A DNA stretch of 59,914 nt, the filler included. It is 5 parts of 5 records of this genome, joined end to end, with 100 filler letters (N's around TTAATTAATTAA, not from the genome) between each part and the next. Parts side by side here need not be neighbours in the genome. Positions count along the whole stretch, not along the records: positions 44,092 to 53,453 come from SRR20825006_2268; 4 more parts are not named here. One strand, written 5' to 3'. Within the stretch, counting starts at the first letter, position 1, and the number at the start of each line of letters is the position of its first letter. Both the position numbers and the translations under genes were made by a program. The notes under the pieces were generated by a model. The model made no database searches and had not been told where the DNA came from. It worked only from the letters and a program-made list of their open reading frames with translations. Shown here piece after piece: positions 39,087 to 57,949 of the stretch.

Positions 39087-39737
39087 TCAATAACAGGAAA
39101 CCTTGTCGATACCAAGCGACTGATTTCCCTCAAGAAACACCTTCAGGTCGGTGTTATCTTCTGGCTTCGAGTTCGACAGATAGACCCAATATTCGGTCAC
39201 ATCTCGGGCCGTTTCACGCACAAACGCCGGATAGCCCGCATTTTGCATCTTCAACCGAAGCCCCTCTGCGGATTCAGCACTGGAGAAATAGCCCAGAGAA
39301 ATCGCATTAGCGTCCTCGCCTTCCTTGACTACAAAACTGTCAACACCATGGTCTTGCAGCTCTCGGAGCACACGCAGCGCACGCTCTCTGTCTTCATAGG
39401 GGGGCAGATACACCCAGTTAAGGCGATCCTTCTGCACACTCAATCCCCGCACACGGCCCGGCAGCCCAATGGCTTTGAGCTGTACCGCACCCGCTTCTGC
39501 CTGCTCACGGCTTTCCCATGGCCCAATCACCGGGCACAAGCTGCCGCCGGGCACGCTCGCCGCCGGCACACTTTGCGGCTGGGGGCTATCTGAGAGCAGC
39601 CGCAAACGCTCGCCACCGGCAGCCGCCTGGGAGACTGGCAAACGCAGAGAAGGAGACTCCGGAGCCAGCGACTTGGTCAACTGAAAGCCCACGTAGACCA
39701 AATTTATCACCAGCAAACTGTAGAATATCCACCGCAC
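39087..39737 (-). CDS. SPOR-domain protein
   Basis: N-terminal TM (MRWIFYSLLVINL); WVYLPP, NAISLGYFS; usual position after coaX. Confidence 0.8.
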   Translation of the reverse strand: MRWIFYSLLVINLVYVGFQLTKSLAPESPSLRLPVSQAAAGGERLRLLSDSPQPQSVPAASVPGGSLCPVIGPWESREQAEAGAVQLKAIGLPGRVRGLSVQKDRLNWVYLPPYEDRERALRVLRELQDHGVDSFVVKEGEDANAISLGYFSSAESAEGLRLKMQNAGYPAFVRETARDVTEYWVYLSNSKPEDNTDLKVFLEGNQSLGIDKVSCY

Positions 39738-39754
39738 AGGTGTTCCCCCATCAT

Positions 39755-40492
39755 TTATTGTTGTCGTGCAGCCACGCGCTCCAGTCCATCGAGGACCAAA
39801 TCCGGTGCGTGCTCAAATTCAAACGCAAACGAACCAATCAACTCCGGCGCATCGCCGCCCGTGACGAGCACTTTGCTAGTATCATCAAGCACTTGGCGCA
39901 GTTCAACCACCACCTCCGTGACAAAGGCCACAGACATGCGCAAGAGTCCGTTATGAACACACTCACCGGTAGTCTGCCCAAGCCCCAGCTGCGCCGTTCC
40001 TGGCTCGATATGCACATCCGAAGTATCGCGAAGCAAGGCACCACGCAACATACCAAGCCCCGGCACGATATAGCCCCCCAGGAAAACACCGCGCCGGTCC
40101 ACAGCATCGATCGTCAAGGCGCTGCCGCAATCGATAATGATCGATGCCCCGTAACGCTGAAACCCCTCAATCATTGCCACCCAGCGGTCAACGCCAAGCT
40201 TTCTCGGATCCGGATAACAGCTTTGCACACCAAAGTCGGATTCGCAGGAATAATAAAACCGGGGCTGGCAACCTGTGCGACTCGCAAGACAGGAGGCAAT
40301 AACCGTATCCGCCTCCGGTCCGGCGACTGAGGCGATCCATATTTCATCAGGCGACCGCCCTGCTCCCGCCAACATGACATCCACCACCCGCGACCACTCG
40401 CGCTGATGGCGGCAGCCACCCTGATGCACCGCTGCGCCGTCGCAATACCGCCATTTCATGGCGGTATTGCCCACATCAACAAACAGCTTCAT
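39755..40492 (-). CDS. coaX: Type III pantothenate kinase
   Basis: VDVGNTAMKW, LGVDRW, IDCGSALTID, GGYIVPG, TGGDA. Confidence 0.96.
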   Translation of the reverse strand: MKLFVDVGNTAMKWRYCDGAAVHQGGCRHQREWSRVVDVMLAGAGRSPDEIWIASVAGPEADTVIASCLASRTGCQPRFYYSCESDFGVQSCYPDPRKLGVDRWVAMIEGFQRYGASIIIDCGSALTIDAVDRRGVFLGGYIVPGLGMLRGALLRDTSDVHIEPGTAQLGLGQTTGECVHNGLLRMSVAFVTEVVVELRQVLDDTSKVLVTGGDAPELIGSFAFEFEHAPDLVLDGLERVAARQQ

Positions 40493-41451
40493 TGGATTCT
40501 CAAACTCACTTCTCCGCCGTACAGGGAGCGCAGCCCATCTTTTGTCTTCAGCAGTAGCGCGCCATCAGAGGCCACTCCATCAGCAACACCAACGAGCTCC
40601 TGATCCACGGCCCTGACAACCACATTCTTGCCGGATACCGCATCAAACTGAGCAAACGATTCCGCAAACGCATCAAATCCATCGCTCTCGAAAAGCGGCA
40701 ACATACCCATTAGCCGGGTAATCACCAGACTGGTGAGATCCGTGCGCGATGGCATCTGCGGCAAGACAGCCGCCAAATCGATCCAGCGCTGGTCAATGGC
40801 ATCAGCCTGACCCGCTGTCATCCGACCATTAAGCCCCACGCCGATCACCACATCCACACGCCCATCCATCTCGCCTGCAAGCTCGATCAACACACCACCA
40901 ATCTTGGCACCATCAACCAAAAGGTCATTGGGCCATTTGAGAGCAATCGGCAGGGCAGGCTCAAGCTCGCGCAACGCTTCGGCAACAGCCACACCAACAG
41001 CCAGACTCAACCCGCCCAACGCGGCGAAGCCACCACTTAACGTGAACCGAATGGAAACATAGAGATTCGCTGCGAACGGAGATTGCCAGGCCCGGCCGCG
41101 GCGACCACGACCCGCCAACTGGCATTCGGTGACAAACACCTGGGGACGGGCAACAGGCCCCTCCAATGCCAGGGCATCCGCATTGGTGGAACCGGTGAGC
41201 CACTGATAGTGAAGGTCCGCAGCCCCGCCCAGGCGGCGCTGCACAATATCGGAGTCAATCAACTCCAAGGGCTGAGCCAGCCGGTAACCTTTGCCTTTCA
41301 CGGATTCCAGAGTGAGACCAAAATCCGCAAGGCGCTGAACCCGCTTCCAGACCCCGGCCCGGGAAATGCCCAACACCTCCCCAAGCTCTGAACCGGAACG
41401 AAAGTTACCATCGGAGAGAAGACGGACCAGCGACTGGTCCGCCTCTTTCAT
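40489..41451 (-). CDS. birA: Bifunctional biotin ligase / biotin repressor
   Basis: N-terminal HTH SGSELGEVLGISRAGVWK; STN, QLAGRGRRGR, KWPND; start MKEADQ at 41451. Confidence 0.96.
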   Translation of the reverse strand: MKEADQSLVRLLSDGNFRSGSELGEVLGISRAGVWKRVQRLADFGLTLESVKGKGYRLAQPLELIDSDIVQRRLGGAADLHYQWLTGSTNADALALEGPVARPQVFVTECQLAGRGRRGRAWQSPFAANLYVSIRFTLSGGFAALGGLSLAVGVAVAEALRELEPALPIALKWPNDLLVDGAKIGGVLIELAGEMDGRVDVVIGVGLNGRMTAGQADAIDQRWIDLAAVLPQMPSRTDLTSLVITRLMGMLPLFESDGFDAFAESFAQFDAVSGKNVVVRAVDQELVGVADGVASDGALLLKTKDGLRSLYGGEVSLRIQ

Positions 41452-41456
41452 CGCGC

Positions 41457-43139
41457 TCAAGCCTCCCAAACAACCCCGCGCGTCTTGGACCACTGAACAA
41501 TGTCATCACCGTAACGCTTTTCGATTTCGTTGCGCTTAAGCTTCAGTGTCGGGGTGATCAGGTTATTCTCGACACTCCAGGCATCCTTGCACACAATCAA
41601 CGTGGTCATACGCTCGTGAGGGTCCAGCACTTCATTTACGCGAGCGAGAAGCTTCTCCAGCTCCTTGGTAAAGTGCTCTTTCTCACTGCCTTTACTCAAA
41701 CGCTCCTGCTCTTCCGGAGTAATATTAAGCAAGGCAACCGGCTGCCCCATACCTTGCCCGATCACACAGGCCAGCTCGAGGCCCGGCATCGTCGCCAGTC
41801 GATTCTCAATCGGCGCCGGCGCGACATATTTACCTTTTTCGGTTTTGAAAATTTCTTTCACTCGACCCGTGATGCGCAAGCGACCCTTACCGTCGATTTC
41901 GCCTACATCACCCGTGCGCAACCAACCGTCTTCGGTCAAATCTTCCGCCGTCTTCTCTGGCTGCTTGTAGTAGCCCTTCATGTTCCCCAGGCTGCGCACC
42001 AGAATTTCACCACCCTCACCGATGCGGCATTCAACACCGTCATTGGGCGTTCCCACCCAACCAATTTGCTGATCCCCTTCTTCCGTGGTGTGAGACCAGG
42101 CCAGGTTTTCGGTCATGCCGTAGACTTCGAGAATTTCCAGATCCAGTTTCTTGAACCAGGTAATAATTTCCGGTGACAACGCGGCAGCACCGGACAACGC
42201 AATTCGGCACTCATCCAACCCCATGGCAGCAAGCACTTTTTTCTTGATGATCTTGTTGAGGAAAGGAATCTTGAGCAACCGGTTGAGTTTCTTCGGTGGC
42301 ACCGCTTCCGAAGCTTTCTGGTAGAACTTGGACCAGATACGCGGCACCGCAAAAAATACGGTTGGTTGTGCCCGCTTGATATCTTCGCCAAAGGTATCCA
42401 GAGACTCGGCAAAAAAGATTTTGTTACCGACATATAGCACAGCAATTTCGACAGCAACGCGCTCAGCCACATGAGACAGCGGCAAATAAGAAATCATCCG
42501 CTCGTCGGGCTTAAGGTCGTACACCTTGATCATCTTTTCCCCGACAGTGGAAAGACTCTCAAAGTCGTGCATCACACCCTTTGGCATCCCTGTGGTGCCA
42601 GAGGTATAAACAATGGTAGCCAGATCGCCGAGTTCCGGTACGTTCACATCCGCCAACGGCGCCGTGTCACGAATAATGTCCGGCCATTTCGGGAACGCCT
42701 GCAGGGCATCTTCCGGTGCCAGGCTCAAGGCAATTTGTGCGACCCCTTCCGGCACACCAGCCTTCATCATGTCCCAGTCGTCCAGTTTGCCAACAAAAAG
42801 GAACTTGGACTCACTGTGCTCCATGATCTGACGCACCGTCTCGGCCACCAGCGTCGGGTAAAGGGGGACACTGACACCACCGGCCATCCAGATTGCCACG
42901 TCAGTGATGATCCATTCCGCACAGTTCTTGGACACCAGCGCAACGTGATCGCCTTTCTGCATCCCCTGGGACTGCAGGTAGGCGGCAATTTTACGCGCCT
43001 CTTCATCCACCTGCTTCCAGGTATATTCACGTAGCTTACCGCCACCCAGGGGCTGAACAAACGCCACTGCATCGCCGTGCTGCGAACAACGCTGAGCCAG
43101 CGCCTGTAGTGGAGTCAGCACACTGTTTTCTGTTGTCAT
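41457..43139 (-). CDS. Long-chain fatty acyl-CoA synthetase (AMP-binding)
   Basis: YTSGTTGMPKG, YLPLSHVAER, VYGMTE, WLRTGDVG, ITPTLKLKR; start MTTENS at 43139. Confidence 0.92.
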   Translation of the reverse strand: MTTENSVLTPLQALAQRCSQHGDAVAFVQPLGGGKLREYTWKQVDEEARKIAAYLQSQGMQKGDHVALVSKNCAEWIITDVAIWMAGGVSVPLYPTLVAETVRQIMEHSESKFLFVGKLDDWDMMKAGVPEGVAQIALSLAPEDALQAFPKWPDIIRDTAPLADVNVPELGDLATIVYTSGTTGMPKGVMHDFESLSTVGEKMIKVYDLKPDERMISYLPLSHVAERVAVEIAVLYVGNKIFFAESLDTFGEDIKRAQPTVFFAVPRIWSKFYQKASEAVPPKKLNRLLKIPFLNKIIKKKVLAAMGLDECRIALSGAAALSPEIITWFKKLDLEILEVYGMTENLAWSHTTEEGDQQIGWVGTPNDGVECRIGEGGEILVRSLGNMKGYYKQPEKTAEDLTEDGWLRTGDVGEIDGKGRLRITGRVKEIFKTEKGKYVAPAPIENRLATMPGLELACVIGQGMGQPVALLNITPEEQERLSKGSEKEHFTKELEKLLARVNEVLDPHERMTTLIVCKDAWSVENNLITPTLKLKRNEIEKRYGDDIVQWSKTRGVVWEA

Positions 43140-43376
43140 AATTCTCAACCTTTCCCGAGTCCAAAATTCAAAGAAACACCCCGCCATGTGGCAGGCCGGT
43201 GCAGGCTAACCCTGCGAATTCTGTTAACGATGCCGAGGAAGAGCAACATCTTCCCGGCAAACCAAGTTGCCAAACGCTGACCGGCAATACACACCCTCTA
43301 CCGCCCCTCGTCAGCAAGGCTCAACCATACCACTTTCGTCGGCAGCAATGGAGCCTTTCCAGGGCAGCAAATGGTT

Positions 43377-43394
43377 GGTAAACGCTTGTTTACT
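43377..43394. promoter_or_regulatory. Putative DesT/FabR-type (TetR family) operator
   Basis: Palindrome GGTAAAC-GCTT-GTTTACT about 240 nt upstream of the acyl-CoA synthetase. Confidence 0.55.
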
Positions 43395-43702
43395 GTAGGA
43401 ATACCGAAAGTCACAGCAGCAAGAATAGAGGCAGTAGGCGCCCGAATAAAGCGTGTTACCGGCGAATCTGCCAACAGACGACAGTGAACTGAATTCAAGA
43501 GAGGGATTACGCCGACGGCACCCGACCATCGAACCAGCCCGTCAAGCGAACATCACTTCCGATAACAGCAAAAGCTTCACAGAACAGAGGCGCAGGACAT
43601 CGTGGTTGTAGCGGGTCTTTTTGGCAAGGGTGTGACAGGGAGGGCTGCGGGTGCCTGGCAGTGCCAGGCTGCAACCAGAGCATTTCTGCCCAGCCTGAAC
43701 AC

Positions 43703-43740
43703 AAAAAAACCTCGACGCTTGCGCGACGAGAGGTCTTTGT
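43703..43740 (-). terminator. Second terminator downstream of the rRNA operon
   Basis: Minus strand GACCTCTCGTCGC-GCAA-GCGTCGAGGT followed by a T-run. Confidence 0.7.
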
Positions 43741-43763
43741 TTAAGAGCCTGACGATGACCTAC
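43740..43763 (-). repeat. 24-bp duplicate of the 5S rRNA 3' end
   Basis: TTTAAGAGCCTGACGATGACCTAC is identical to 43962-43985. Confidence 0.95.
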
Positions 43764-43890
43764 AGTGTGTGACGAGCATGCTCGTCATCCCTTGCGGGAC
43801 GCCTTCGGCGCACCACGCTTGCTCCTGCGGAGCATTGCTTGTCACACCTCGGTCCCGCTTGACGGGATGGCGGCTTTGCCGCGAGGTAGG
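43764..43890. other. Multi-hairpin GC-rich element between the duplicated 5S ends
   Basis: Outer stem GTGTGACGAGCA/TGCTTGTCACAC with nested hairpins; second branched stem ACCTCG/CGAGGT. Confidence 0.6.
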
Positions 43891-43917
43891 GAGAGTAATT
43901 CACCGTATCCCAAATAC

Positions 43918-43958
43918 AAAAAAAGCCCCCTAGCATACTGCGCTAGGGGGCCTTTTTT
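43918..43958 (-). terminator. rRNA operon terminator
   Basis: AAAAAAAGCCCCCTAGC...GCTAGGGGGCCTTTTTT. Confidence 0.85.
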
Positions 43959-43967
43959 GTATTTAAG

Positions 43968-43991
43968 AGCCTGACGATGACCTACTCTCAC
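43968..43991 (-). rRNA. rrf: 5S rRNA, 3' terminal fragment
   Basis: Minus strand GTGAGAGTAGGTCATCGTCAGGCT matches a gammaproteobacterial 5S 3' end; the contig breaks here. Confidence 0.88.
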
Positions 43992-44091: not shown

Positions 44092-44120
44092 AGTAGATAT
44101 AATAATATAATAGTGATAAA
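44092..44120 (+). repeat. Left copy of the 29-bp terminal direct repeat of contig D
   Basis: AGTAGATATAATAATATAATAGTGATAAA is identical to 53425-53453. Confidence 0.97.
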
Positions 44121-44124
44121 TTTT

Positions 44125-44155
44125 AAGCCTTGACAGTAAATGTTGAGGCTTTTTT
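44125..44155 (+). terminator. Rho-independent terminator right after the left repeat
   Basis: AAGCCTTGACA-GTAAA-TGTTGAGGCTT followed by a T-run. Confidence 0.75.
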
Positions 44156-44415
44156 GTTTGTGTATTTTTTGTTCTAGATACCTATATGGGAAACAAAAGG
44201 GAGAAAAGTGGTTGAAACTTTTACGTTTTAAGATTGACAATTTTAATAGATCAACTAAAGAAGGCTTATGAGTTATCTGGACATCCATACTATCAAGTAA
44301 AACATAACTTTTGTTTTAACACAAATAACATTGTATTAACTTACCTTTTATAAAAAATAGTTTTTTTTGCTTACTTTTAGAAAATAGTCTCATTATAAAA
44401 TAGGTATCGTCTAGA

Positions 44416-44985
44416 GTGGCATCTTATAAAATTCATAGAAACATAAAATTATCTTCTGAGATAGATATAAACTCTAAAGAAGGGTTTGATCTTATCTTTA
44501 AATTATACTATGGAAAACTGTTTCATATTGCCAAAGGATATTTAGTGTTTAATGAAGATGCTGAAGAAATAGTACAGAATGTATTTTTACAACTTTTAGA
44601 AAATAAAGATACTGCCTCTAAAATCAATAATCTTAATAATTACTTATATACCTTAACCAAGAATGCTTGCCTAGATCATTTAAAGCATTTAAAAGTTAAA
44701 TCAAATTTCTCCGAGCAAAAGAAAAAAATTCAACAAGGCTTAATTAATGACGAAGCAGCTTCTTTACTGATAGAAAATGAGTTGAGTAAAAGGATAGAAG
44801 AAGCAATTGCGTTACTACCTGAAAAATGTAAAATGGTATTTGTAAAAAGTAAGTATGAAGGCTTAAAACGAAAAGAAATAGCTAGTATATTAGATATTTC
44901 ACCACGTACAGTGGATAATCATTTGGCAAATGCTTTAAAGCATATGCGACTGCATTTAAAAGAATACATTACATATTTATTTTAA
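44416..44985 (+). CDS. ECF sigma-70 factor (Bacteroidetes PUL type)
   Basis: DAEEIVQNVF, YLYTLTKNACLDHLK, LPEKCKMVF, EIASILDISPRTVDNHL; GTG start. Confidence 0.93.
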   Translation: MASYKIHRNIKLSSEIDINSKEGFDLIFKLYYGKLFHIAKGYLVFNEDAEEIVQNVFLQLLENKDTASKINNLNNYLYTLTKNACLDHLKHLKVKSNFSEQKKKIQQGLINDEAASLLIENELSKRIEEAIALLPEKCKMVFVKSKYEGLKRKEIASILDISPRTVDNHLANALKHMRLHLKEYITYLF

Positions 44986-45054
44986 AAAAAACTAAATTTC
45001 GTTTAGGTAATTCTTCATTTTAAATCGTCTATAATTAAAGAGGCAATTTTTTAA

Positions 45055-46188
45055 ATGAAAGAATTATTAAAAAAATATATTGAAGGGAAAACCGATGCTA
45101 CAGAAACGGAGACTGTAGAAAATTGGATTCTTAGCAGTGATAAAAATCAGAAGACTTACAATATTTTAAAGACTGCTAATACTATTAATTCCTTTGAGGA
45201 AACCGAAGCCCAAATTAATGTAGATAAACAATTAATTAAGCTTGAAGCGAACAAGACCAAATCTTCAAAATCAATACGGACTTATTATAAATACGCAGCT
45301 ATTTTTATAGTGCTGTTAGGAGGGGCATATATATTTCTAATTCAAAATTCCTTTCAGCAAAAATCCATTCCAGAAAATGCAATAACACTTACGTTAGATG
45401 ATGGTACAATAAAGGTTATTTCTGAAAACTCTGAAGAAGAAATACTAAGTAGCACAGGAAAAATGGTAGGAGTAAAAGGTTTAAATAAGATTGTATATAA
45501 AAACATAGCTAATAACATTGAAACGGAAGCGGTTTCTTATAACACCTTAAATGTACCCTACGGAAAACAATTTAACCTAGAATTGGCAGACGGTTCTGTT
45601 ATATACTTAAACGCTGGGAGTAGAATAACTTACCCAACAAATTTTAACGGTCAAAAACACAGAGAGGTTTTAATTAGTGGAGAAGCATTTTTTGAAATAG
45701 CAAAAGATACATTACACCCATTTGTGGTGAGAGCAAATAACCTTGGAGTACAAGTTTATGGTACAAAATTTAATGTGTCGGCATATAAGGAAGATGCTAC
45801 CGTACAAACAGTTTTGGTAGAAGGTTCTGTAGGGCTGTATTCTGAAAATGAAGATAAAAAAACAGAAACTACATTTTTAAAGCCTGGATATATGGCAACA
45901 TGGGAGAAGGCTGATGAAAATATCTCAATAGGTAAAACAGATGTATCTATTTATACCTCATGGATGCAAGGCGAGTTAGTATTTAAGCATATGCCATTTA
46001 GAAATATTTTGAAAAAATTAGAAAGACACTACAATGTGTCAATAGATATGCCTACAGATTCAATTGCTAATTTAACTTTTACAGCAAGTTTTAATGAAGA
46101 TAAGGCGTTGCCAGAAGTATTAGAAACTTTTAAACAATATTATGGAATTCATTATCAAATAAACAATAATAAAGTAAATATATATTAA
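45055..46188 (+). CDS. FecR-family anti-sigma factor
   Basis: Single TM; LADGSVIYLNAGS, GEAFFEI, VYGTKFNV, LVEGSV. Confidence 0.94.
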   Translation: MKELLKKYIEGKTDATETETVENWILSSDKNQKTYNILKTANTINSFEETEAQINVDKQLIKLEANKTKSSKSIRTYYKYAAIFIVLLGGAYIFLIQNSFQQKSIPENAITLTLDDGTIKVISENSEEEILSSTGKMVGVKGLNKIVYKNIANNIETEAVSYNTLNVPYGKQFNLELADGSVIYLNAGSRITYPTNFNGQKHREVLISGEAFFEIAKDTLHPFVVRANNLGVQVYGTKFNVSAYKEDATVQTVLVEGSVGLYSENEDKKTETTFLKPGYMATWEKADENISIGKTDVSIYTSWMQGELVFKHMPFRNILKKLERHYNVSIDMPTDSIANLTFTASFNEDKALPEVLETFKQYYGIHYQINNNKVNIY

Positions 46189-46345
46189 CACATAAAACTA
46201 TGGAGTCTATGAATAAATAAAGCTAATGAAACATCCATGTCTAATTTTTAGTCATACAGCGGAATGCTTATTTGGATGTTCCGCATGATTACTAAATACA
46301 ATAAAAAAGCACATGAAAGCTAACTAAGAAACTCTTGATATAAAA

Positions 46346-46377
46346 AAATCGGAAAATGCAGCCACATTTCCCGATTT
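46346..46377 (+). promoter_or_regulatory. Hairpin in the fecR-susC intergenic region
   Basis: AAATCGGAAAATG-CAGCCA-CATTTCCCGATTT preceded by an A-run. Confidence 0.55.
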
Positions 46378-46424
46378 AGAGAGTGATTAAATTATTTAAC
46401 CACATTTTTAAGAAAAGCAAAAAT

Positions 46425-49400
46425 ATGAAAAATCTAACTAGGATTAGGAAAAACATTCCTATTCACCAAAGTCATGTTTTAAAAATGAAATTGTCTGTTG
46501 TACTATTTTTTTTCATGATAATTCAAGTAAACGCCAATTTAACTTACGGACAAAAAGATAAAGTATCCGTTAACCTCCAAAATGTAAATTTAGATAGAGT
46601 ACTAACAGCTATTGAGTCGCAAACAGATTATCGATTTATTTATAAAGACGATGAAATAGATTACAAAAAGAGTGTTTCAATCAAGGTAGAGAAATCGCCA
46701 ATAAAAGAGGTATTACAAGATTTATTCAGAAATACTTCTATAGACTACCAAGTAGTTGGAACCCAAATTATTTTAAAGCCGAATAAGCATATTAAAACAG
46801 AGGTTTTAACGCAAAAAACTACTATTGTACAAGTATCTGTAAATGGAAGTGTATTAGATGATAATGGGCAACCCTTACCAGGAGCTAGTATTTTAGAAAA
46901 AGGAACAACTAATGGTGCTACCACAGATTTTGACGGGAATTTTTCTTTAACACTTACTAATTCTGATGCGGTTCTAGTTGTATCTTATATTGGATTTGTA
47001 GCTAAAGAAGTAGCAGTAAATGGGAATGAAAATATAACAGTAACACTTGAAGAAGATTTTGCAAAACTCGATGAGGTAGTGGTAATTGGGTATGGGCAAC
47101 AATCAAAAGCTAAAGTAATAGGTTCTGTAGGTAAAATAGAGGAAGAAGAACTTTCCAAAGTAGCGTCATCATCTGTAGGGCAACAATTAGCGGGAAAAAT
47201 GTCAGGAGTTGTAGTTAATCAATCAAATGGACAACCAGGAGCGGCATCTCAAATTGTTATTAGAGGTACTGGTACGTTAACTGCGGGGACAAATCCATTG
47301 ATAGTTGTAGATGGATTTCCATTATCCGAAGGGAGTTCATTAAACTCAATTAATCCAGATGATATTGCAACAGTTAATGTTTTAAAAGATGCGGCATCTG
47401 CATCTATTTATGGGTCTAGAGCAGCAAATGGGGTTATTTTAGTAACTACAAAACAAGGGAGTAAGAATGAAAAAACTACAATTACGTTAGATACTTATGT
47501 TGGGATGCAAGAACAAAGTTCTGGTGTAGAATTGGTGGATGCATACCAATTTGCACAATTTATAACAGAAGCACGAAATTGGGGGTATGTTTCCAAAGAT
47601 CCAGCAAACCGTAGCGCAACAGATCCTAATTCTGTTCGAGTTACTAAAACTATAAACGGTCAAGGGATAGACGGACGAGAATTGTATTTAGATTTTCTGC
47701 AACCCTACCTAGATGGAAAATCAGGTCTTACAAATACAGATTGGATGGATGTTGCCTTTAGAGCTGCAGCAATGTATAATTATAACCTTTCAGTCTCAGG
47801 AGGTAATGAAAAAACAAAATTCTATACTTCTTTAGGATATTTTAATCAGGAGGGAATTGTTATAGGAAGCGATTTAAAAAGATATTCTGCTAACATAAAT
47901 TTAAATTCGAAATTAACAGATAAGATAAATATAGGTGTAAGTGTAAAACCTTCATTTACAGATCAAAATGCATTAGATCAAGGTAGTAGAAGTTCAGGAG
48001 CTATCGCCTTAGTTCCTTTAAATTTTTCTTATTACAGTCCATATACAGACAATGGAGATATTAATATAAGTGAGCAAATAATAAATGAGCAACGAGAAAT
48101 TGAAGGAGTACGTATTAATGGTACCCCTGTTGAAAATTTATTAGCAACCTCAACAATGGTTAAAGATAATAGACAACAATTTAGAGTATTTGGAAACGTA
48201 TTTGCCGATTTTGAAATCGTTAAAAATTTAAAATATAAAATTTCATTAGGCGGAGATTATGAAAACTACACTCGCAATTTTTATTATCCATCCTCGGTTG
48301 GTTCATATAGAACGCCAGCTCCTCGATCTGATGCCGAAGCTACTCAGGATAAACAAACTAGATATAATTATTTAATAGAGAACACATTGAATTATGATTT
48401 TTCTTTAGCTAAACATAATTTTGATTTATTAGCAGGTTATACATTTCAAAAGGAAAACATAGATTTTTCAAGTACTGTAGGTACTGGATTTGCCGATGAT
48501 AATATTAAAAATATAGCAGGAGCAAGTTCTCATACTACAAATTATAATTTAGCAATATGGGCTTTAGAGTCATATTTTACAAGGTTGCAATACGACTATG
48601 ATGCAAAATATCTTTTTAGCGCAGCTATAAGAAAAGACGGTTCCTCAAGATTTGGTAGTAATAATAGATGGGGATATTTTCCTTCTGTATCTGGAGGATG
48701 GGTTTTCACTAGAGAATCGTTTATGCCTTTAGAAGATATAGTAACCTTTGGTAAAATATCTGCAAGTTGGGGACAAACAGGGAATAATCAAATAGGGAAT
48801 TATGGATCGTACGCATTGGTTACAGATTCTAACTATGTTAACGGGAATTCTCTAGCAGCTGGTTATATAACTACATCTGCTCCAAATCCTAATTTAGGAT
48901 GGGAAGTAGCATCAGCAATGAATATTGGACTAGATCTTAGCTTTTTTCATAAGTTAAACTTCAGCATGGCTTATTATAAAACTAATACCAAAGACTTATT
49001 ATTAAATGTTCCTGTTCCTCAGCAAACTGGGTATGAGAATGTGTTAGCCAATATAGGGGAAATGGAAAATAAGGGTTTAGAATTTGAATTGAGCGGAAGA
49101 AATTTCATGCTAGGAAATGTAGGACTTGGCTTTAATGCTAATTTAACGTCTTATCAGAACAAAGTATTGGCTTTGGGACCTGGACAAGAAGAGATTGCAA
49201 CAGGAAGAGATCAACTTTTTGTTACTAAAGTTGGAGGTTCTATTGCTGAAATATATGGATATGAAGTAGATGGAGTTTTTAAAACTCAACAAGAAATAGA
49301 TAATACCCCACATTTATCGGGAACACTTACAGGAGATTTCAAAGTGAAAGATATTAATGGAGATGGTAAGATTAATGATGAAGATAAGGTGTCTAAAGGA

Positions 49401-49928
49401 ACATATACACCAGATTTTACCTATGGTTTTGGAGGAAGTGTAGCTTACAAAGGTTTTAACTTTAGTTTTAATTTTAATGGAGTTTCAGGACGTGCTTTAA
49501 TGGATGGAGATATGGCTTCTTTAACGGAAGCTGGAGAAGGCTTTTCTGTACCTACAACGTATTATTTTGAAAATCGATACCATCCAGTAAACAATCCAGA
49601 TGGATTTTTAGGGCAACCTAATTTTGGAAACTTTTCAAATTCTAGAAAAATTTTACGTAGCTCGGTAGTTGTAGAGGAAAATAATGGAGATTATATCAGA
49701 CTTCGAGATATCAGAATAGCATACGATTTTAGTAAATCAATATTAGAAAGGTTACGTTTATCAAAACTTCAGTTATACGTATCTGGAAATAATGTATTTA
49801 CAAAGACAGATTATAGAGGATGGAATCCAGATGGAACATCGTCCAATATTCTTACTTCAGGATATAATGATGGGTCTAATTATCCATTAGCAAAAACCTA
49901 TTTAGTAGGATTAAGAATAGCATATTAA
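46425..49928 (+). CDS. SusC/RagA TonB-dependent transporter with N-terminal STN signalling domain
   Basis: STN region; CarboxypepD-like GQPLPGASILEKGT; LDEVVVIGYG; plug VLKDAASASIYGSRAANGVILVTTK; DGSSRFG; start uncertain (46383, 46425 or 46485). Confidence 0.95.
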   Translation: MKNLTRIRKNIPIHQSHVLKMKLSVVLFFFMIIQVNANLTYGQKDKVSVNLQNVNLDRVLTAIESQTDYRFIYKDDEIDYKKSVSIKVEKSPIKEVLQDLFRNTSIDYQVVGTQIILKPNKHIKTEVLTQKTTIVQVSVNGSVLDDNGQPLPGASILEKGTTNGATTDFDGNFSLTLTNSDAVLVVSYIGFVAKEVAVNGNENITVTLEEDFAKLDEVVVIGYGQQSKAKVIGSVGKIEEEELSKVASSSVGQQLAGKMSGVVVNQSNGQPGAASQIVIRGTGTLTAGTNPLIVVDGFPLSEGSSLNSINPDDIATVNVLKDAASASIYGSRAANGVILVTTKQGSKNEKTTITLDTYVGMQEQSSGVELVDAYQFAQFITEARNWGYVSKDPANRSATDPNSVRVTKTINGQGIDGRELYLDFLQPYLDGKSGLTNTDWMDVAFRAAAMYNYNLSVSGGNEKTKFYTSLGYFNQEGIVIGSDLKRYSANINLNSKLTDKINIGVSVKPSFTDQNALDQGSRSSGAIALVPLNFSYYSPYTDNGDINISEQIINEQREIEGVRINGTPVENLLATSTMVKDNRQQFRVFGNVFADFEIVKNLKYKISLGGDYENYTRNFYYPSSVGSYRTPAPRSDAEATQDKQTRYNYLIENTLNYDFSLAKHNFDLLAGYTFQKENIDFSSTVGTGFADDNIKNIAGASSHTTNYNLAIWALESYFTRLQYDYDAKYLFSAAIRKDGSSRFGSNNRWGYFPSVSGGWVFTRESFMPLEDIVTFGKISASWGQTGNNQIGNYGSYALVTDSNYVNGNSLAAGYITTSAPNPNLGWEVASAMNIGLDLSFFHKLNFSMAYYKTNTKDLLLNVPVPQQTGYENVLANIGEMENKGLEFELSGRNFMLGNVGLGFNANLTSYQNKVLALGPGQEEIATGRDQLFVTKVGGSIAEIYGYEVDGVFKTQQEIDNTPHLSGTLTGDFKVKDINGDGKINDEDKVSKGTYTPDFTYGFGGSVAYKGFNFSFNFNGVSGRALMDGDMASLTEAGEGFSVPTTYYFENRYHPVNNPDGFLGQPNFGNFSNSRKILRSSVVVEENNGDYIRLRDIRIAYDFSKSILERLRLSKLQLYVSGNNVFTKTDYRGWNPDGTSSNILTSGYNDGSNYPLAKTYLVGLRIAY

Positions 49929-49952
49929 TCATTAACTGATAAAATACCAGAG

Positions 49953-51338
49953 ATGAGAATATTAAAAATAATATTGATAGGGGGCTTATTCTTTATAGTT
50001 TCATGTGAAAAAGAATTAATCCAAAACCCAAATACAGACAAAGTTGCAAATAACTTTTATACAAATGAAGCAGAACTTGAAGAAGGAGTAAATGCAGTAT
50101 ATGCTACCTTACAGTTTGGCGGAAATTATGACATTGCAATTCCAGCATTAGGAGAAATACCTGGAGAAGATGCTTATGATGAAACTCCTGCAAATGATGG
50201 AGGAGTGTATGGAGAAATAGACCAATATAATGTAATTCCTCAAAATGGACTCATTGAAAATGTATGGAGAGATGCTTATAAAGGGATACAACGTGCAAAT
50301 ATAGTTTTAAATAGAATTGAAGATATAGCGTATGATAATGCAACCACTAAAAAAGCAAGAATAGGTGAAATGTTATTTATTAGATCTTTATACTATTTTA
50401 ATTTGGTGAGAATATTTGGAGATGTACCATTAGTTGTGGAGGAAATAATAAATCCTCAGGATAGTTTTGGGCAGACTAGAACCCCAAAAGAAGATGTCTA
50501 TAATCAAATTATAACAGACTTAACTCTCGCTGTAGATTTGTTACCAAATAGAAATGAGGGCAACAAAATGAGAGCTGTAAAAACTGCAGCATATACACTT
50601 TTAGGAAAAGTATATTTAACTCTAGGAGATTATCCAAACGCTTATGACAATTTAATTGAAGTTGTAAAATCAAAAAGTCATAAACTTATACCTATAGAAG
50701 AAGTTTTTTCAACTGAAAATGAATTGAACGAAGAAATTATTTTTGCAGTACAATTTGCTTCTGGAATTAATGCAAATAGTGAAGGAACAGATGCTTATAG
50801 AATGTTTAATCCAACAGGAAGAGTAGAAGGGAATATGACAGGAACTAAAGGACATGGAGTATTAAAACCTGATTTTTATGATTTGTATGAGGAAGATGAT
50901 TTACGAAAAGGAGTGTATGTAGATGTTTTAGAATCTGGAATTGCTTATAGCAAAAAACTAGCAATCCCATCTACCGTAATTGGAGATTCGGAAAGTGACT
51001 GGGTGGTTTTGAGATATGCAGAAGTACTTTTAATGTTAGCTGAGATTGAGAACCAAAGAGGTAATATAGACATTGCAATTGGATATTTAAATGAAATTCG
51101 AGAGCGTGTAAATCTAGGACTTTATGAAGGTTTAGAGGATAAAAATTCAGTATTTAACGAGATAGATTTACAACGTAGATTAGAATTAGTATGGGAAGGA
51201 CACAGATGGTTTGATATTTTACGACAAAATAGAGCAGGAGAAGTATTAGGAGTTTCAGATTCAAATCGTTTGCTAATGCCTATCCCTGCTAAACAAATAG
51301 CTACAGATAGTGCTTTAGAGCAAAATCCAGGATATTAA
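49953..51338 (+). CDS. SusD/RagB lipoprotein
   Basis: Lipobox IVSC; YFNLVRIFGDVP, LRYAEVLLMLAE, RRLELVWEGHRWFD, QNPGY. Confidence 0.95.
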   Translation: MRILKIILIGGLFFIVSCEKELIQNPNTDKVANNFYTNEAELEEGVNAVYATLQFGGNYDIAIPALGEIPGEDAYDETPANDGGVYGEIDQYNVIPQNGLIENVWRDAYKGIQRANIVLNRIEDIAYDNATTKKARIGEMLFIRSLYYFNLVRIFGDVPLVVEEIINPQDSFGQTRTPKEDVYNQIITDLTLAVDLLPNRNEGNKMRAVKTAAYTLLGKVYLTLGDYPNAYDNLIEVVKSKSHKLIPIEEVFSTENELNEEIIFAVQFASGINANSEGTDAYRMFNPTGRVEGNMTGTKGHGVLKPDFYDLYEEDDLRKGVYVDVLESGIAYSKKLAIPSTVIGDSESDWVVLRYAEVLLMLAEIENQRGNIDIAIGYLNEIRERVNLGLYEGLEDKNSVFNEIDLQRRLELVWEGHRWFDILRQNRAGEVLGVSDSNRLLMPIPAKQIATDSALEQNPGY

Positions 51339-51346
51339 TCCTATAT

Positions 51347-51466
51347 AGAGGTCTAAAAAGTACTTAAACTCGATATGTTATCCTAAGCTTGTTAAAGGAT
51401 TTTTCAAATGTTAGGAGCTTAAAAAATTGATGAGATTGAAAGCTATAAATTACTTTTTAGACCTCT
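51347..51466. mobile_element. MITE-like 120-bp element with perfect 16-bp terminal inverted repeats
   Basis: AGAGGTCTAAAAAGTA (51347-51362) and TACTTTTTAGACCTCT (51451-51466); non-coding interior. Confidence 0.6.
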
Positions 51467-51523
51467 TAAACTATATGTTAATCAAAAATATTACATCAGA
51501 CCAATTAAAAACAATAAAAAAAG

Positions 51524-53323
51524 ATGAATCAAACACATAAAATAATAGTCTCTTTATGTTGCTTTTTACTTTTTTCAATAAATATTTCATCTCAGAATTC
51601 AAGAGGTTACTTTCAGTCGTATCAAGATATTATTGAGATGATAGATAACCCAAGTGATGATCACGTAATGGTGGTAGCGCATAGAGGGGATTGGCGAAAT
51701 GCACCAGAAAACTCTATAAAAGCCGTTCTAAACTGTATTGAAATGGGAGTTGAGATTGTTGAAATAGATATTCGAATAACAAAAGATAATCAATTGGTTG
51801 TTATTCACGATTTAACGTTAGATCGTACCACAACAGGAACTGGAAAGGTTAAAGACAAAACGCTTGAGGAGATTAAGGAGTTGTCTTTAAAAAATGGAGC
51901 CAATGGAATAACTGCTCATAAAGTGCCAACGCTTAAAGAAATGATGCTTGCTGTTAAAGACAAATCTATTTTACTAAACTTAGATAAAGCATGGGAATAT
52001 TTACCTCAAACAGTTTCAATTTTAAAGGAAACAGAAACTTTAAAACAATGTATTTTTAAAGGAAATGACCCCTATGAGGTAATGATAGAAAAACATGGCA
52101 ATTTGCTAAAGCAAGTTAATTATATGCCAATGGTTTGGCCACCAGATTATAATATTTATAAAGCAGAAGATGAACTGATTAAAGATCCTGTAAAATACAC
52201 AAACGATTATATTGAGCAGTTAAATCCTTTAGCTTTTGAAGTTATTTACAGTGATGAGGAATCCTCTATTTTTGATGCAATTTCTAAAATAAAAGAGCAT
52301 AAAATATCCGTTTGGGTAAATACTTTATGGGGTAAGTTATGCGCATTTCATCAGGATGATGTTGCAGTTGAGAATCCAGATAAGCATTATGGTTGGGTAA
52401 TAGATCATGGGGCAAATATTATTCAAACGGATCGTCCTCAATTTTTAATTAATTATTTGAAATCTAAAAATTTACGAAACGCAAATAGTAAATCTAAAAT
52501 CCCACTTTTAATAGGTAACCTTGAAGACTCTACTAATAAGGAAATTATGGTTGTAGCGCATCGAGGAGATTGGCGAAATGCTCCAGAAAACTCTTTGCAA
52601 GCTATTAAGTCGTGCATAGATATGGGGGTAGATATGGTGGAAATAGATGTTCGAGAAACAAAAGATGGTAAGCTTGTACTAATGCATGATGAGACTTTAG
52701 ATAGAACAACAAATGGACAAGGATTGGTTAGTAATTGGACGCTAGATAGCCTAAAAACGCTACATTTATTAGATGGCTTAGGGGTTAAAACGCCAAATAA
52801 AATACCAACTTTAGAGGAAGCTTTACGTCTATGCAAAGGGAAAATATTAGTAAACTTAGATAAAAGCTATAGTATTTTTGACAAATGTTTTGAGATAGCT
52901 AAAAAAACAGAGACCTTAAATCAGATTGTAATTAAAGGGAATAAAACTAAAAAAGAAGTGGAAGCCGAATTTGGGCAGTTTTTAGATGAGGTATATTTTA
53001 TGCCAATAGTTAAACTTAATAATCCTAATGCCGAACATATCATTGAAGAATATCTAGAAAGTGAAGTGCCTATAGCATTTGAATTTACGGTACCACAAGA
53101 TACAATTAGTCTTATTAAAAAATTTAAGGATATCAGAGATAAAGGAGCAGGAGTCTGGGTCAATTCATTATGGCCACAACATAATGGAGGTCATGACGAT
53201 GAGAAAGCCTTACTAAATCCAGAAATTTATAATTGGTTTATAGATGCTAATGTAGATATGATACAAACAGATAGACCTGCATTACTTCTTCAATATTTAA
53301 GAGCTAGAGGGTTACACCAGTAA
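51524..53323 (+). CDS. Secreted glycerophosphodiester phosphodiesterase with two tandem GDPD domains
   Basis: Signal peptide; two copies of VVAHRGDWRNAPENS...EID.R.TKD..LV..HD.TLDRTT and IQTDRP. Confidence 0.93.
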   Translation: MNQTHKIIVSLCCFLLFSINISSQNSRGYFQSYQDIIEMIDNPSDDHVMVVAHRGDWRNAPENSIKAVLNCIEMGVEIVEIDIRITKDNQLVVIHDLTLDRTTTGTGKVKDKTLEEIKELSLKNGANGITAHKVPTLKEMMLAVKDKSILLNLDKAWEYLPQTVSILKETETLKQCIFKGNDPYEVMIEKHGNLLKQVNYMPMVWPPDYNIYKAEDELIKDPVKYTNDYIEQLNPLAFEVIYSDEESSIFDAISKIKEHKISVWVNTLWGKLCAFHQDDVAVENPDKHYGWVIDHGANIIQTDRPQFLINYLKSKNLRNANSKSKIPLLIGNLEDSTNKEIMVVAHRGDWRNAPENSLQAIKSCIDMGVDMVEIDVRETKDGKLVLMHDETLDRTTNGQGLVSNWTLDSLKTLHLLDGLGVKTPNKIPTLEEALRLCKGKILVNLDKSYSIFDKCFEIAKKTETLNQIVIKGNKTKKEVEAEFGQFLDEVYFMPIVKLNNPNAEHIIEEYLESEVPIAFEFTVPQDTISLIKKFKDIRDKGAGVWVNSLWPQHNGGHDDEKALLNPEIYNWFIDANVDMIQTDRPALLLQYLRARGLHQ

Positions 53324-53424
53324 TAAAATGATTTATTCGATAATCGAAGTTTAAATACTCGAACACTTGCGTCGAAATATTTTTTAGTATTTCCTTTTAA
53401 TACCTCGTGCGCTTGAATCAAGAG

Positions 53425-53453
53425 AGTAGATATAATAATATAATAGTGATAAA
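53425..53453 (+). repeat. Right copy of the 29-bp terminal direct repeat of contig D
   Basis: Identical to 44092-44120. Confidence 0.97.
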
Positions 53454-53553: not shown

Positions 53554-53554
53554 G

Positions 53555-53815
53555 AATATTGATGGTGGTTTTAACTGGTATGCAGGACCTGGAGCAGGTG
53601 TTGGTTTAGTTAGTTATGATGATTATAATGACAAGGATCCTTTTGATAAGGATAAAACCACAGATGCATACGCTTTTATTACAGGTGATATCGGTATTGA
53701 ATATAATTTCGATTTCCCGTTATTAATCTCGTTTGATTTTAGGCCTCAGTTTAATTTAGGGTATTTAGATGATGCAGGTTTTGATATTGGATTAAGTGCT
53801 CGATATCAATTTTAG
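53555..53815 (+). CDS. Outer-membrane beta-barrel protein, C-terminal fragment
   Basis: Manual translation NIDGGFNWYAGPGAG...GDIGIEYNFDFPLLISFDFRP...IGLSARYQF*; C-terminal YxF beta signal. Confidence 0.8.
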   Translation, partial: NIDGGFNWYAGPGAGVGLVSYDDYNDKDPFDKDKTTDAYAFITGDIGIEYNFDFPLLISFDFRPQFNLGYLDDAGFDIGLSARYQF

Positions 53816-53825
53816 ATAGTAGATA

Positions 53826-54968
53826 TTAATTATAATTAGTTGTGCCTTTTTGTTGAATAGCTGTTTCATAAAGCTTTTCATATAAAGGCACAATTTTTTT
53901 GGTATCATACACCATAGCAGCTTCAATTGCTTGATTTTTAAATTTATTTAAAGTTTCATCTGAAGCTAAAATAATCAGAGCGTTTTCAGCCATTTCATCT
54001 ACATTCCCCACATCACTCAAAAATCCACTTACGCCATTAATATTTACTTCAGGTAATCCGCCAGCATTACTTGAAATTACTGGAACCCCACAAGCCATAG
54101 CTTCTAAAGCAGCGAGACCAAAACTTTCTTTTTCTGAAGGAAGAATAAATAAATCAGTAAAGCATAAAATTTTATCAATTTCATTACTGTTTCCTAAAAA
54201 GAGAACTTTTTCTTCAATTCCTTTTTTTCTACACAAACGTTCGCAAGCTTCACGTTCAGGGCCTTCACCTACGATAATTAATTTTGAAGGTATTTTCTTT
54301 TGAACACGATCAAAAACTTCAACTACATCTTTAACTCTTTTTACTTCTCTAAGGTTACTAACGTGTGTAATGATGCGTTCTTCCTTGCTCGCCATCATAT
54401 CACGCTGGCAATCCGTAAAAGGTTTTTTATCAGGAATATCAATAAAATTTGGAACTACATGAATCTCCTTTTTTATATCGAAAAGATGTAAGGTATCATC
54501 TTTTAAACTCTTTGAAACTGAAGTAACTACATCGCTATTATTGATGCTAAAAGTTACTGCAGGCTTATAAAATGGATGATTACCAACCAAGGTAATATCT
54601 GTGCCGTGAAGTGTTGTAACCATTGGAATATGGATGTTTTCTTCCGCTAATATTTTTTTAGCCATATAACCTGCATACGCATGTGGAATTGCATAATGCA
54701 CATGAAGTACTTCTATTTTATGTAGTTTCACCATATCTACCAACTTACTGGAAAGCGCAAGTTCATAGGGTTGATAATGAAATAGTGGGTAAACAGGGAC
54801 AGAAACTTCGTGAAAATGAATGTTTTTCGAAAGTAATTCCAATCGAACAGGTTGTTTGTATGTTATGAAATGAATTTCATGACCTTTTTCGGCAAGCGCC
54901 AAGCCCAATTCAGTGGCTACTACTCCACTTCCTCCGAAGGTTGGGTAACATACTATTGCTATCTTCAT
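53826..54968 (-). CDS. bshA: N-acetyl-alpha-D-glucosaminyl L-malate synthase (bacillithiol biosynthesis)
   Basis: CYPTFGGSGVVATELG, HVHYAIPHA, TTLHGTDIT, ESFGLAALEAMACG. Confidence 0.96.
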   Translation of the reverse strand: MKIAIVCYPTFGGSGVVATELGLALAEKGHEIHFITYKQPVRLELLSKNIHFHEVSVPVYPLFHYQPYELALSSKLVDMVKLHKIEVLHVHYAIPHAYAGYMAKKILAEENIHIPMVTTLHGTDITLVGNHPFYKPAVTFSINNSDVVTSVSKSLKDDTLHLFDIKKEIHVVPNFIDIPDKKPFTDCQRDMMASKEERIITHVSNLREVKRVKDVVEVFDRVQKKIPSKLIIVGEGPEREACERLCRKKGIEEKVLFLGNSNEIDKILCFTDLFILPSEKESFGLAALEAMACGVPVISSNAGGLPEVNINGVSGFLSDVGNVDEMAENALIILASDETLNKFKNQAIEAAMVYDTKKIVPLYEKLYETAIQQKGTTNYN

Positions 54969-55014
54969 TGTATTTTTTTCAAGTTCAAAGTTTTACAAAC
55001 AATTACTTCGAAAT

Positions 55015-57933: not shown

Positions 57934-57949
57934 AGCGGTTGAAATGGGA

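Follow-up and report, generated by a model that had tools for sequence, protein, structure and literature searches.

A SusCD-type uptake locus of a Galbibacter orientalis-type flavobacterium on a contig bounded by a 29-nt direct repeat

Gene organization of contig D

The window analyzed in this study (a stretch of 59,914 nt, filler included) is composed of five contigs, which stem from different organisms and not from one host as the original prediction had assumed. Contig D (44092-53453) is the only one of the five with an end-to-end overlap (10-200 nt, any orientation). An identical 29-mer, AGTAGATATAATAATATAATAGTGATAAA, opens and closes this contig (44092-44120 and 53425-53453, + strand in each case), in agreement with the exact direct repeat originally predicted to bound this contig, and N/TTAATTAATTAA spacers part it from the adjoining contigs. 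The 29-mer exists in exactly two copies in the window, where no third copy was detected at up to 3 mismatches (expected number from 100 shuffles, 0.00).

Contig D is filled by five complete genes, all on the + strand: an ECF-type sigma factor of 189 aa (44416-44985; Pfam Sigma70_r2, Sigma70_r4_2 and Sigma70_ECF); a FecR-type anti-sigma factor of 377 aa (45055-46188; FecR and FecR_C); a SusC-type TonB-dependent transporter of 1181 aa with an N-terminal STN signalling domain (46383-49928; STN, CarbopepD_reg_2, Plug and TonB_dep_Rec_b-barrel); a SusD-type lipoprotein of 461 aa (49953-51338), the N-terminus of which ends with FFIVSC; and a protein of 599 aa, predicted to be secreted from its signal sequence, in which Pfam detects two glycerophosphodiester phosphodiesterase (GDPD) domains as well as two DUF4996 stretches (51524-53323). 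The last gene contains an internal 120-nt repeat of 79% identity. Only 24 nt separate the SusC and SusD genes, and the double-GDPD protein is encoded downstream; with adjoining susC and susD and a co-located degradative enzyme, the cluster has the organization of a SusCD-type utilization locus (PUL/Pus). The Pfam scan of the five proteins gave no recombinase, relaxase, replication or transfer gene, confirming the gene content first described.

The left exact 29-mer copy (44092-44120, +) starts with AGTAGAT, the 3'-terminal part of a degenerate REP-like element that otherwise lies left of the contig start. Together with the following TTTTAAG, it makes up the portion within contig D of a longer, approximately 58-bp repeat copy (44092-44127, +), of which the preceding 22 nt are present only in the run contigs and at positions 4117-4138 of L007, the 3.95-Mb scaffold of Galbibacter orientalis DSM 19592. 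A terminator-like hairpin of 11 pairs followed by a T run (44125-44151, +) stands directly 3' of this copy. At the other end, a composite of REP-like hairpin modules (53330-53431, +) is located downstream of the GDPD gene and ends with a 33-nt module (53399-53431, +) that belongs, in degenerate form, to a 103-copy family. The portion of the right repeat copy within contig D (53403-53453, +) consists of 22 nt and the exact 29-mer, and continues as CTCTAAG in DSM 19592.

Chromosomal surroundings and the 58-bp repeat

Scaffold L007 aligns to contig D over 9,364 nt with 99.38% identity, and the locus of DSM 19592 lies between purC and acs. The neighbouring genes on the purC side encode GT4, AraC, SDR and PurC, and those on the acs side encode Acs, DUF6503, RNase T and DUF294. 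The purC stop codon precedes the start of the left repeat by 91 nt, and the hairpin at 44125-44151 takes its chromosomal place about 190 nt downstream of purC. With a GC content of 0.29-0.35, the locus is not distinct from its flanks. No tRNA or Rfam match was detected in the window or L007, and no plasmid or phage match was found for the locus.

In three of the four runs examined (X1, X15 and X18), one 13,985-nt contig spans 44092-53453 unbroken with 0-1 differences, carrying in addition 4,504 nt of other sequence to the left and 119 nt to the right. The 22 nt preceding the left 29-mer in these contigs correspond to 53403-53424 with 0-1 mismatch, and the next 30 nt upstream are unlike the window and, as judged by eye, represent L007 4087-4116. 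For X18 these 22 nt show 0 mismatches, literally a 51-nt exact repeat, which fits badly with a single contig crossing both copies. The depth of the locus contig was close to that of other long contigs (864 versus 844; 18.5 versus 20.1/20.4; 36 versus 33.7/43.2), as far as contig depth, which is not a copy number, can be compared. Contig D comes from the chromosome of a Galbibacter orientalis-type flavobacterium, where it is single-copy, and carries a SusCD-type outer-membrane uptake locus. The original prediction had itself cautioned that the overlap might be of assembler origin; in the run contigs the locus is embedded, with the two copies in different surroundings.

The chromosomal repeat is longer than the 29-mer, extending over about 58 bp (22 + 29 + 7) as an imperfect direct repeat. 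The exact 29-mer is present once in L007, the left copy there differing at 3 of 51 positions; the 7 further nt after the copies are alike, and the two DSM 19592 copies differ from each other at 5 of 56 aligned positions. The repeat is made of two different halves: the first 29 nt or so are a degenerate version of a 33-nt hairpin (REP-like) element that is dispersed in the genome, and the last 29 nt or so are AT-rich and confined to this pair in genome G001, where a search with the 58-mer gave two full-length matches plus partial matches to its first 26-42 nt. The 33-nt unit, with inverted arms TACCTCG...CGAGGTA, forms composite modules downstream of genes. With as many as 3 mismatches allowed, it gave 103 matches in the G. 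orientalis genome (60 forward and 43 reverse), and the reversed control gave 0. Both flank copies are included among the 103, with 2 and 3 mismatches. REP/BIME-type dispersed palindromic elements are known in enterobacteria and pseudomonads. The present family is REP-like in its many near-identical copies with inverted arms and in its composites downstream of genes, whereas the two locus copies are degenerate and carry a private AT-rich tail. Alignment of the flanks gave family-level identity upstream, 91-98% across the 58 nt and none beyond. At 2 sites where DSM 19592 retains the family consensus, the left window copy has the base of the right copy, and at 1 site the right window copy has that of the left.

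An ortholog of the GDPD gene was found in 1 of 10 Galbibacter genomes. The purC-acs spacing, 10.2 kb in G001, is 0.6-4.0 kb on one contig in 6 of the 9 other genomes, and the cargo of this gap varies between species; the locus is therefore a lineage-specific insertion, and the presence/absence variation that the original prediction looked for among relatives is indeed observed. The insertion probably took place between the two repeats; no vacant site bearing one hybrid repeat turned up, and the purC regions of the nine congeners gave no significant match to the 58-mer (best 16 nt, E 0.13). The next best SusD shares only 71% identity, hence no donor was identified. This apparently phosphodiester-type SusCD locus, specific to one Galbibacter lineage, situated in the variable purC-acs interval and bounded by a REP-derived repeat, provides a further case in which dispersed repeats delimit blocks of accessory genes of marine flavobacteria.

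Origin of the repeat and of the contig ends

The repeat may be a scar left behind when the locus entered the G. orientalis lineage at this site, to which we give an about even chance among the origin scenarios. Most likely, a circular intermediate would have integrated by one crossover within a short common REP-plus-tail sequence, or else a duplication would have arisen at the join, and the two copies might later have exchanged sequence by gene conversion. Such a repeat pair could permit rare RecA-type loss of the locus, but nothing points to its present mobility.

Alternatively, the two copies could be independent dispersed REP-like elements of neighbouring intergenic regions, unrelated to the arrival of the locus and homogenized afterwards by gene conversion. 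Both flanks carry full multi-module REP-like composites with differing upstream modules, the family numbers 103 copies in the genome, and the differences between strains look like conversion between the two copies. We nevertheless consider this origin unlikely: the AT-rich tail of about 29 nt and the derived GCGCTTGAATCAAGA core are common to these two copies only, no other tail copy was found in G001, a search of 401 family genomes gave the full repeat in only 1, and a conversion tract needs homology on both sides, yet the similarity ends abruptly after TAAG.

A scar of the arrival event is also to be weighed against a reading of the 58-bp repeats as attL and attR of an integrase-less cassette, moved in trans by an unlinked site-specific recombinase or a REP-associated Y1 transposase, with the purC-acs gap as a cassette hotspot. 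The locus resembles genomic islands with att-type direct repeats in its imperfect direct repeats of about 58 bp on both sides, its lineage-specific presence, and the variability of the site within the genus; unlike these islands, it is devoid of an integrase and of a tRNA or gene-end target, and part of its repeat is a dispersed element. The five locus proteins and nine flanking L007 proteins (from ORFs of 70 aa or more, over about 4 kb on the left of the locus and 8 kb on its right) matched no recombinase family. What recommends a cassette is the complete functional unit between direct repeats, together with genome G004, in which a different one-gene cargo at the same purC-acs site is flanked by a 238-bp direct repeat, and with the single Y1_Tnp gene (36-bit match) of G001. 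The G004 repeat is, however, the duplicated 3' end of purC, unrelated to the 58-mer; no copy of the REP-like element lies within 1.5 kb of the Y1_Tnp gene of G001 at up to 5 substitutions; and the flank copies fold no better than shuffles (z = -1.9 and 0.3). Furthermore, besides its restriction to one family genome, the 58-mer was not detected at 65 other SusD loci, and occurs in three metagenome contigs in the same context as in L007. Neither a junction nor an empty site was seen in the runs, and in all searches the 58-mer and the five-gene unit came up in one genomic context only, giving no sign of the movement as a module that was originally proposed. The att reading is thus quite improbable in our estimate, and a shade less probable still is the claim that the repeats serve as recombination sites of a cargo cassette lacking its own integrase, with such cassettes being exchanged in trans by an unlinked recombinase or REP-associated machinery at a purC-acs hotspot of Galbibacter. 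The hotspot reading also fits the different cargo in 6 congeners and the repeat-flanked unrelated cargo of G004. If true, the exchange of cassettes in the absence of a linked recombinase would be relevant to the way in which uptake loci are shuffled in Bacteroidota.

Contigs bounded by an unresolved short repeat are a general outcome of assembly. Contig D behaves alike in ending at the limits of the exact repeat, which the run contigs, from an assembly with longer words, pass at both copies; it differs in that both copies are real and flank a complete gene cluster, and therefore the terminal overlap reports genuine genome structure. The fallback of the original prediction, that a 29-nt overlap would imply a flanking repeat, was borne out, one chromosomal copy being present on each side of the locus. 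In the sequenced strain, the copies would be identical over exactly 29 nt with a mismatch bounding each side, and the contig would therefore have ended at the 29-mer on both sides, provided that the assembler, using words of about 29 nt or extending until reads disagree, was unable to bridge the repeat. The circular look of contig D would then be wholly due to this stop. We hold with very high confidence that the chromosomal SusCD segment and the assembler stop at the 29-nt repeat apply jointly; the explanation as a whole, discounted for the less certain origin of the repeat, is still likely.

It is very improbable that contig D existed in the source sample as an excised circle, as a small plasmid-like molecule or in tandemly amplified copies, the 29 nt being the assembler word overlap on a closed path. 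A closed path does give a terminal overlap, and after circularization the hairpin at 44125-44151 would fall about 130 nt past the GDPD stop codon; but the contigs of three runs cross both copies unbranched into different flanks at ordinary depth, against the excised circle originally proposed, and neither replication or relaxase genes nor a plasmid or phage match accompany the locus. Under a circle, the agreement of the overlap length with the exact identity of two chromosomal copies would be a coincidence, an argument that assumes, as judged from DSM 19592, a mismatch beside the 29-mer and a differing base after it. The joint of a circle, from the GDPD side through the 29-mer into TTTTAAGCC... 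(53453 to 44092), was absent among the joints listed for the four runs, which are contig data that drop rare variants and in which a rare circle or a rare empty site is invisible. Caution is needed, as a contig with the same short word at both ends mimics a circle or mobile module, here a chromosomal segment cut at a 29-nt repeat; the mixing of contigs of several organisms in the window calls for caution as well.

In PMC6449649, dif/pdif sites are described as 28 bp long (11-6-11), the inner parts of their arms being palindromic, and dif modules as having a site on either side in inverted orientation; the Acinetobacter dif modules are likewise small gene units bounded by short sites without a recombinase of their own, but their site length, central region, palindromy, orientation, plasmid location and context recurrence are all without counterpart here. 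A Xer-dependent dif-type module, as originally proposed from an 8-of-11 match to one arm in very AT-rich sequence, its sole support, is hardly credible and was rejected: the 29-mer plus one base parses only as 11-8-11 (centre 8 nt versus 6), the two arms agree as a dyad at no more than 4 of 11 positions, the copies are direct, the right copy in DSM 19592 is followed by C where the proposed right arm would end with T, the 29-mer opens with 7 nt of the REP-like element of which half of the repeat is a degenerate copy, no dif-like site was found, and L007 and the three metagenome contigs share one context with no plasmid match.

Predicted function of the locus

The secreted GDPD enzyme probably cleaves glycerophosphodiester-type substrates. 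SusD would bind such compounds at the cell surface and SusC would import them, and occupancy of SusC may be signalled through its STN domain to FecR, so that the ECF sigma factor would be freed and transcription of the locus raised. None of the runs found to contain the stretch is recorded as RNA. This assignment draws on the Pfam domains, the signal sequences and the co-location of PusCD with phosphodiesterases in the phosphate-utilization (Pus) SusCD loci of Flavobacterium, as described in PMC8115612. The locus appears to resemble these Pus loci as judged by domain content: in both, the SusC/SusD pair adjoins phosphodiesterase genes and not carbohydrate-active enzymes. Unlike the Pus loci described there, the locus of contig D encodes an ECF sigma factor paired with FecR, and its SusC bears an STN domain.

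Contig D and the composition of the window

Contig D (44092-53453; 9,362 nt) starts and ends with an identical 29-nt sequence (hereafter the 29-mer), the two copies of which were the sole matches in the window at up to 3 mismatches, with 0.00 expected from 100 shuffles. The exact repeat at the borders of the contig was thus confirmed, and no overlap of 10-200 nt was detected between any other ends of the five contigs compared. Contig D carries five complete genes, all on the + strand: an ECF sigma factor and a FecR anti-sigma factor (both from domain search), SusC (domains STN, CarboxypepD_reg, Plug and barrel), a SusD lipoprotein, and a 599-aa secreted protein in which two GDPD domains are accompanied by two DUF4996 stretches. 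By domain content, these five complete genes include no recombinase, relaxase or replication gene, as the original prediction had stated. Since neither the window nor the corresponding locus region of Galbibacter orientalis DSM 19592 (L007) gave a match in searches for Rfam families and tRNA genes, the repeat lies outside any known RNA gene.

The genes are arranged as in a trans-envelope-signalling SusCD locus, of which the enzyme, judging from its domains, would be a phosphodiesterase and not a glycoside hydrolase. The closest described kind, by likeness of domain content, is that of the phosphate-utilisation (Pus) loci known from Flavobacterium; there, PusCD pairs lie beside phosphodiesterases and are induced by phosphate depletion (PMC8115612). 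A motif around TTATTTGGATGTTCC is located at window 46226-46259, upstream of susC, and again at 51502-51522, upstream of the GDPD gene. The same motif is shared by other long contigs of the sequencing runs that contain D, namely one of 41 kb and one of 9,481 nt (the latter with 3 mismatches over 34 nt), and could represent a promoter or operator common to several SusCD loci under sigma/anti-sigma control.

The five contigs of the window (spacers N/TTAATTAATTAA) come from more than one organism. The GC content is 0.340 for A (1-14102), 0.403 for B (14203-38878), 0.557 for C (38979-43991), 0.315 for D and 0.342 for E (53554-59914). Contigs A, B and E showed only 65-78% identity to the DSM 19592 genome, against 99.4% for D, and no match to this genome was found for C. 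In composition the window resembles a mixed assembly or a loose bin, and with several organisms in it a comparison of coverage with that of the host is meaningless here. Contig B carries its own purC homologue (approximately 28460-29423; 71% DNA identity to purC of DSM 19592), and contig E is homologous (66-77%) to positions 2935920-2942550 of the DSM 19592 chromosome (G001:C1), a segment whose end is some 2 kb upstream of purC. The window thus contains, on two unrelated contigs, counterparts from another flavobacterium of the chromosomal neighbourhood of D.

Chromosomal setting of the locus

A SusD-based scan of species genomes yielded 66 loci, among which L007, located on the 3.95-Mb scaffold of G. 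orientalis DSM 19592, was 99% identical and the next best 71%. Alignment of D with L007 4139-13502 gave 99.38% identity. In L007 the locus is preceded by genes for a GT4 glycosyltransferase, an AraC regulator, an SDR protein and purC, and is followed by acs and genes for DUF6503, an RNase T-like exonuclease and DUF294; locus and flanks have the same GC content.

In 18 of the 23 listed runs, half or more of the words sampled from D were present, and the contigs of four of these (X1, X9, X15 and X18) were compared with D. In X1, X15 and X18, a single 13,985-nt contig spans the whole of D unbroken, with 0-1 differences, 4,504 nt preceding D and 119 nt following it. The 22 nt to the left of the left 29-mer differ from window 53403-53424, the 22 nt preceding the right 29-mer, at 1, 1 and 0 positions in X1, X15 and X18, respectively, while the next 30 nt further left are without likeness to the window. 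The shared 22 nt together with the unlike outer 30 nt indicate that both copies of the 29-mer are on the same molecule, each with its own outer flank. Compared by eye, the 30 nt before the left repeat are those of L007 4087-4116, so that the run contigs share the purC-side context. In each run the 13,985-nt contig has the depth of other long contigs, a value not to be taken as a copy number. A joint of 53453 to 44092 was absent among the joints listed for the contigs of the four runs, in which rare forms are invisible, and megablast of the whole contig D against plasmid and phage collections gave no match. Contigs that cross both copies into different flanks at ordinary depth thus speak against the proposal that D is an excised circle, and what stands is the fallback offered with it, in which a 29-nt overlap implies a flanking repeat.

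The left end of the 13,985-nt contig is another copy of a REP-like composite, and its right end is an array of a 14-nt unit repeated 5.8 times, which in G. orientalis lies directly right of the right repeat (L007 13544-13622); this contig likewise stops at repeats. X9 gave only pieces of up to 1.7 kb at depth 0.5-19, with several joints that skip or run backward (their sides being 20-29 letters long) around 46294-51527, which we read as paralogous loci of other organisms, uninformative on the repeat. Runs X1 and X15-X18, which bear five coded organism names from three coded studies, each hold 100% of the words sampled from D. X1, X15 and X18, filed under three different organism names, share an identical 13,985-nt contig, indicating the same bacterium in runs filed as other organisms.

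The circular look of D is an assembly effect. In DSM 19592, the two copies of the repeat mismatch directly before the 29-mer (T/G) and directly after it (T/C), and in the left copy the window strain has the letters of the right copy at two positions, both of which still follow the consensus of the REP-like family in DSM 19592; these differences leave exactly 29 identical bases. We infer that D would end at both copies with an assembler using words of about 29 letters, or with one extending until reads disagree; the default word series of one widely used metagenome assembler includes 29. The overlap of a true circle would equal the word length of the assembler, and only chance would then make it as long as the exact repeat in the chromosome. 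The run contigs were presumably made with 31-letter words, which would explain their crossing of both copies. For X18, where the 22 nt ahead of the left copy show 0 mismatches, a literal reading would give an exact repeat of 51 nt, which would fit poorly with a single contig passing through both copies.

The flanking repeat and a REP-like family

The 29-mer is part of a longer, imperfect repeat of about 58 nt (the 58-mer), present in DSM 19592 at L007 4117-4174 and 13452-13509, with 5 mismatches over 56 aligned nt and unrelated sequence beyond. When a 64-nt query over the right copy was searched against the DSM 19592 genome, two full-length matches were obtained, together with partial matches elsewhere to its first 26-42 nt, which are members of a modular hairpin family. 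The 33-nt unit of this family (consensus AATACCTCGTAGGCTTGCCTCGAGGTAGTTGAT) gave 103 matches at up to 3 mismatches in this genome, 60 forward and 43 reverse, versus 0 for the reversed control, and both flank copies are among the 103, with 2 and 3 mismatches. The unit often forms multi-module composites downstream of genes (for instance in loci L070, L071 and L069, and at L112 1653-1685); its forward copies cluster in other parts of the chromosome than its reverse copies, and partial matches occur in a few other genomes of the family. A single match to Y1_Tnp (IS200/RAYT-type; 36 bits) was found in a 190-aa open frame of the DSM 19592 genome (G001:C1:1762815-1763054; L131), with no REP-like copy at up to 5 substitutions within 1.5 kb.

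Both copies of the repeat were aligned with two members of the hairpin family. Upstream of the 58 nt, similarity is at the family level only; across the 58 nt it is high, with a derived core GCGCTTGAATCAAGA and an AT-rich tail private to the pair; past TAAG it is nil. This pattern of zones indicates that the 29-mer begins within the 7 nt that end a degenerate REP-like element, and continues through the private tail. Folded as single strands, the two flank regions were not better than shuffles (z = -1.9 and 0.3). The full repeat was present in 1 of the 401 family genomes searched, and the 58-mer gave nothing at E <= 0.01 in 65 other SusD loci.

The identity over 58 nt is sharp-edged and includes a private tail, and it lies at either border of a complete unit; it could mark a join made when the locus arrived. 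Such a join might result from a circular intermediate recombining with the chromosome by a single crossover inside a short shared stretch, or from duplication at the join. The first route would also account for the terminator-like hairpin after the left copy (44125-44151), which in the circular permutation would directly follow the GDPD gene. The strain differences between copies suggest that gene conversion may later have acted between them. As a rival reading, two resident REP-like copies would have been homogenised, against which the private tail speaks. The locus may also have been moved in trans by site-specific recombination, for which there is zero positive evidence.

The original prediction had likened the 29-mer to a Xer/dif-type site, but it fails the defining features, and there is no evidence for Xer. 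The dif and pdif sites are of 28 bp in an 11-6-11 arrangement with palindromic inner arms, and dif modules are bounded by inverted copies (PMC6449649); the centre here would be of 8 nt, not 6. The arms pair as a dyad at just 4 of 11 positions, the copies of the 29-mer are direct and not inverted, and in DSM 19592 the base that follows the right copy is not the one with which the supposed right arm ends. Plasmid and phage collections yielded no copy, and the metagenome contigs and family genomes present one genomic context only.

The purC-acs interval in the genus

Both purC and acs were found in 10 of 10 genomes of the genus, on different contigs in three (G003, G008 and G010). The gap between them is 10.2 kb in DSM 19592, 4.0 kb in G002 (CDF, OMP, DsbA and EcsC proteins), 2.8 kb in G007 (an SSF symporter), 2.3 kb in G004 (an fn3/DUF4959 gene), 2.1 kb in G005 (proteins without a Pfam family), 1.1 kb in G009 (an OMP beta-barrel protein) and 0.63 kb in G006 (a tandem array alone). 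An ortholog of the 599-aa GDPD protein was detected in DSM 19592 only, the other genus genomes carrying just paralogues of about 250 aa (37-43% identity). Against the purC regions of the nine congeners, the best match of the 58-mer was of 16 nt (E 0.13), and thus there is no clean empty site among them. A metagenome scan for the 29-mer with two degenerate positions covering both variants matched 3 contigs, all with DSM-type occupied junctions and none with an empty site.

Outside the genus, where loci were compared at E <= 1e-20 and coverage >60%, SusC was detected in 15 of 16 (61-71% identity in 14, 31% in one), GDPD in 3 (40-55%) and FecR in 2 (32-41%), and none of the 16 gave a match for sigma, purC or acs. 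Such scattered partner genes indicate that the five-gene unit as such is not conserved there; only the SusCD pair is, at 61-71% identity, and purC and acs never adjoin it. Our conclusion is that the G. orientalis lineage acquired the locus at a variable site, that this acquisition is not recent, and that no donor is among the genomes sampled. A real repeat flanks a chromosomal, lineage-specific SusCD/GDPD locus, for which evidence of present mobility is absent.

In G004, the fn3/DUF4959 gene is flanked by a 238-bp direct repeat (97%; L117 2880-3117 and 4284-4521) that is a duplicated 3' end of purC. The topology is of the single-crossover insertion type, the same as that of the crossover route proposed for D, with longer homology. 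Around the other purC-acs cargos, direct repeats were just chance-like pairs of 24-28 nt, apart from this 238-bp pair and the tandem array of G006. The latter (L122 995-1254), directly after purC, differs from that of G. orientalis and has a copy spacing of 21 nt.
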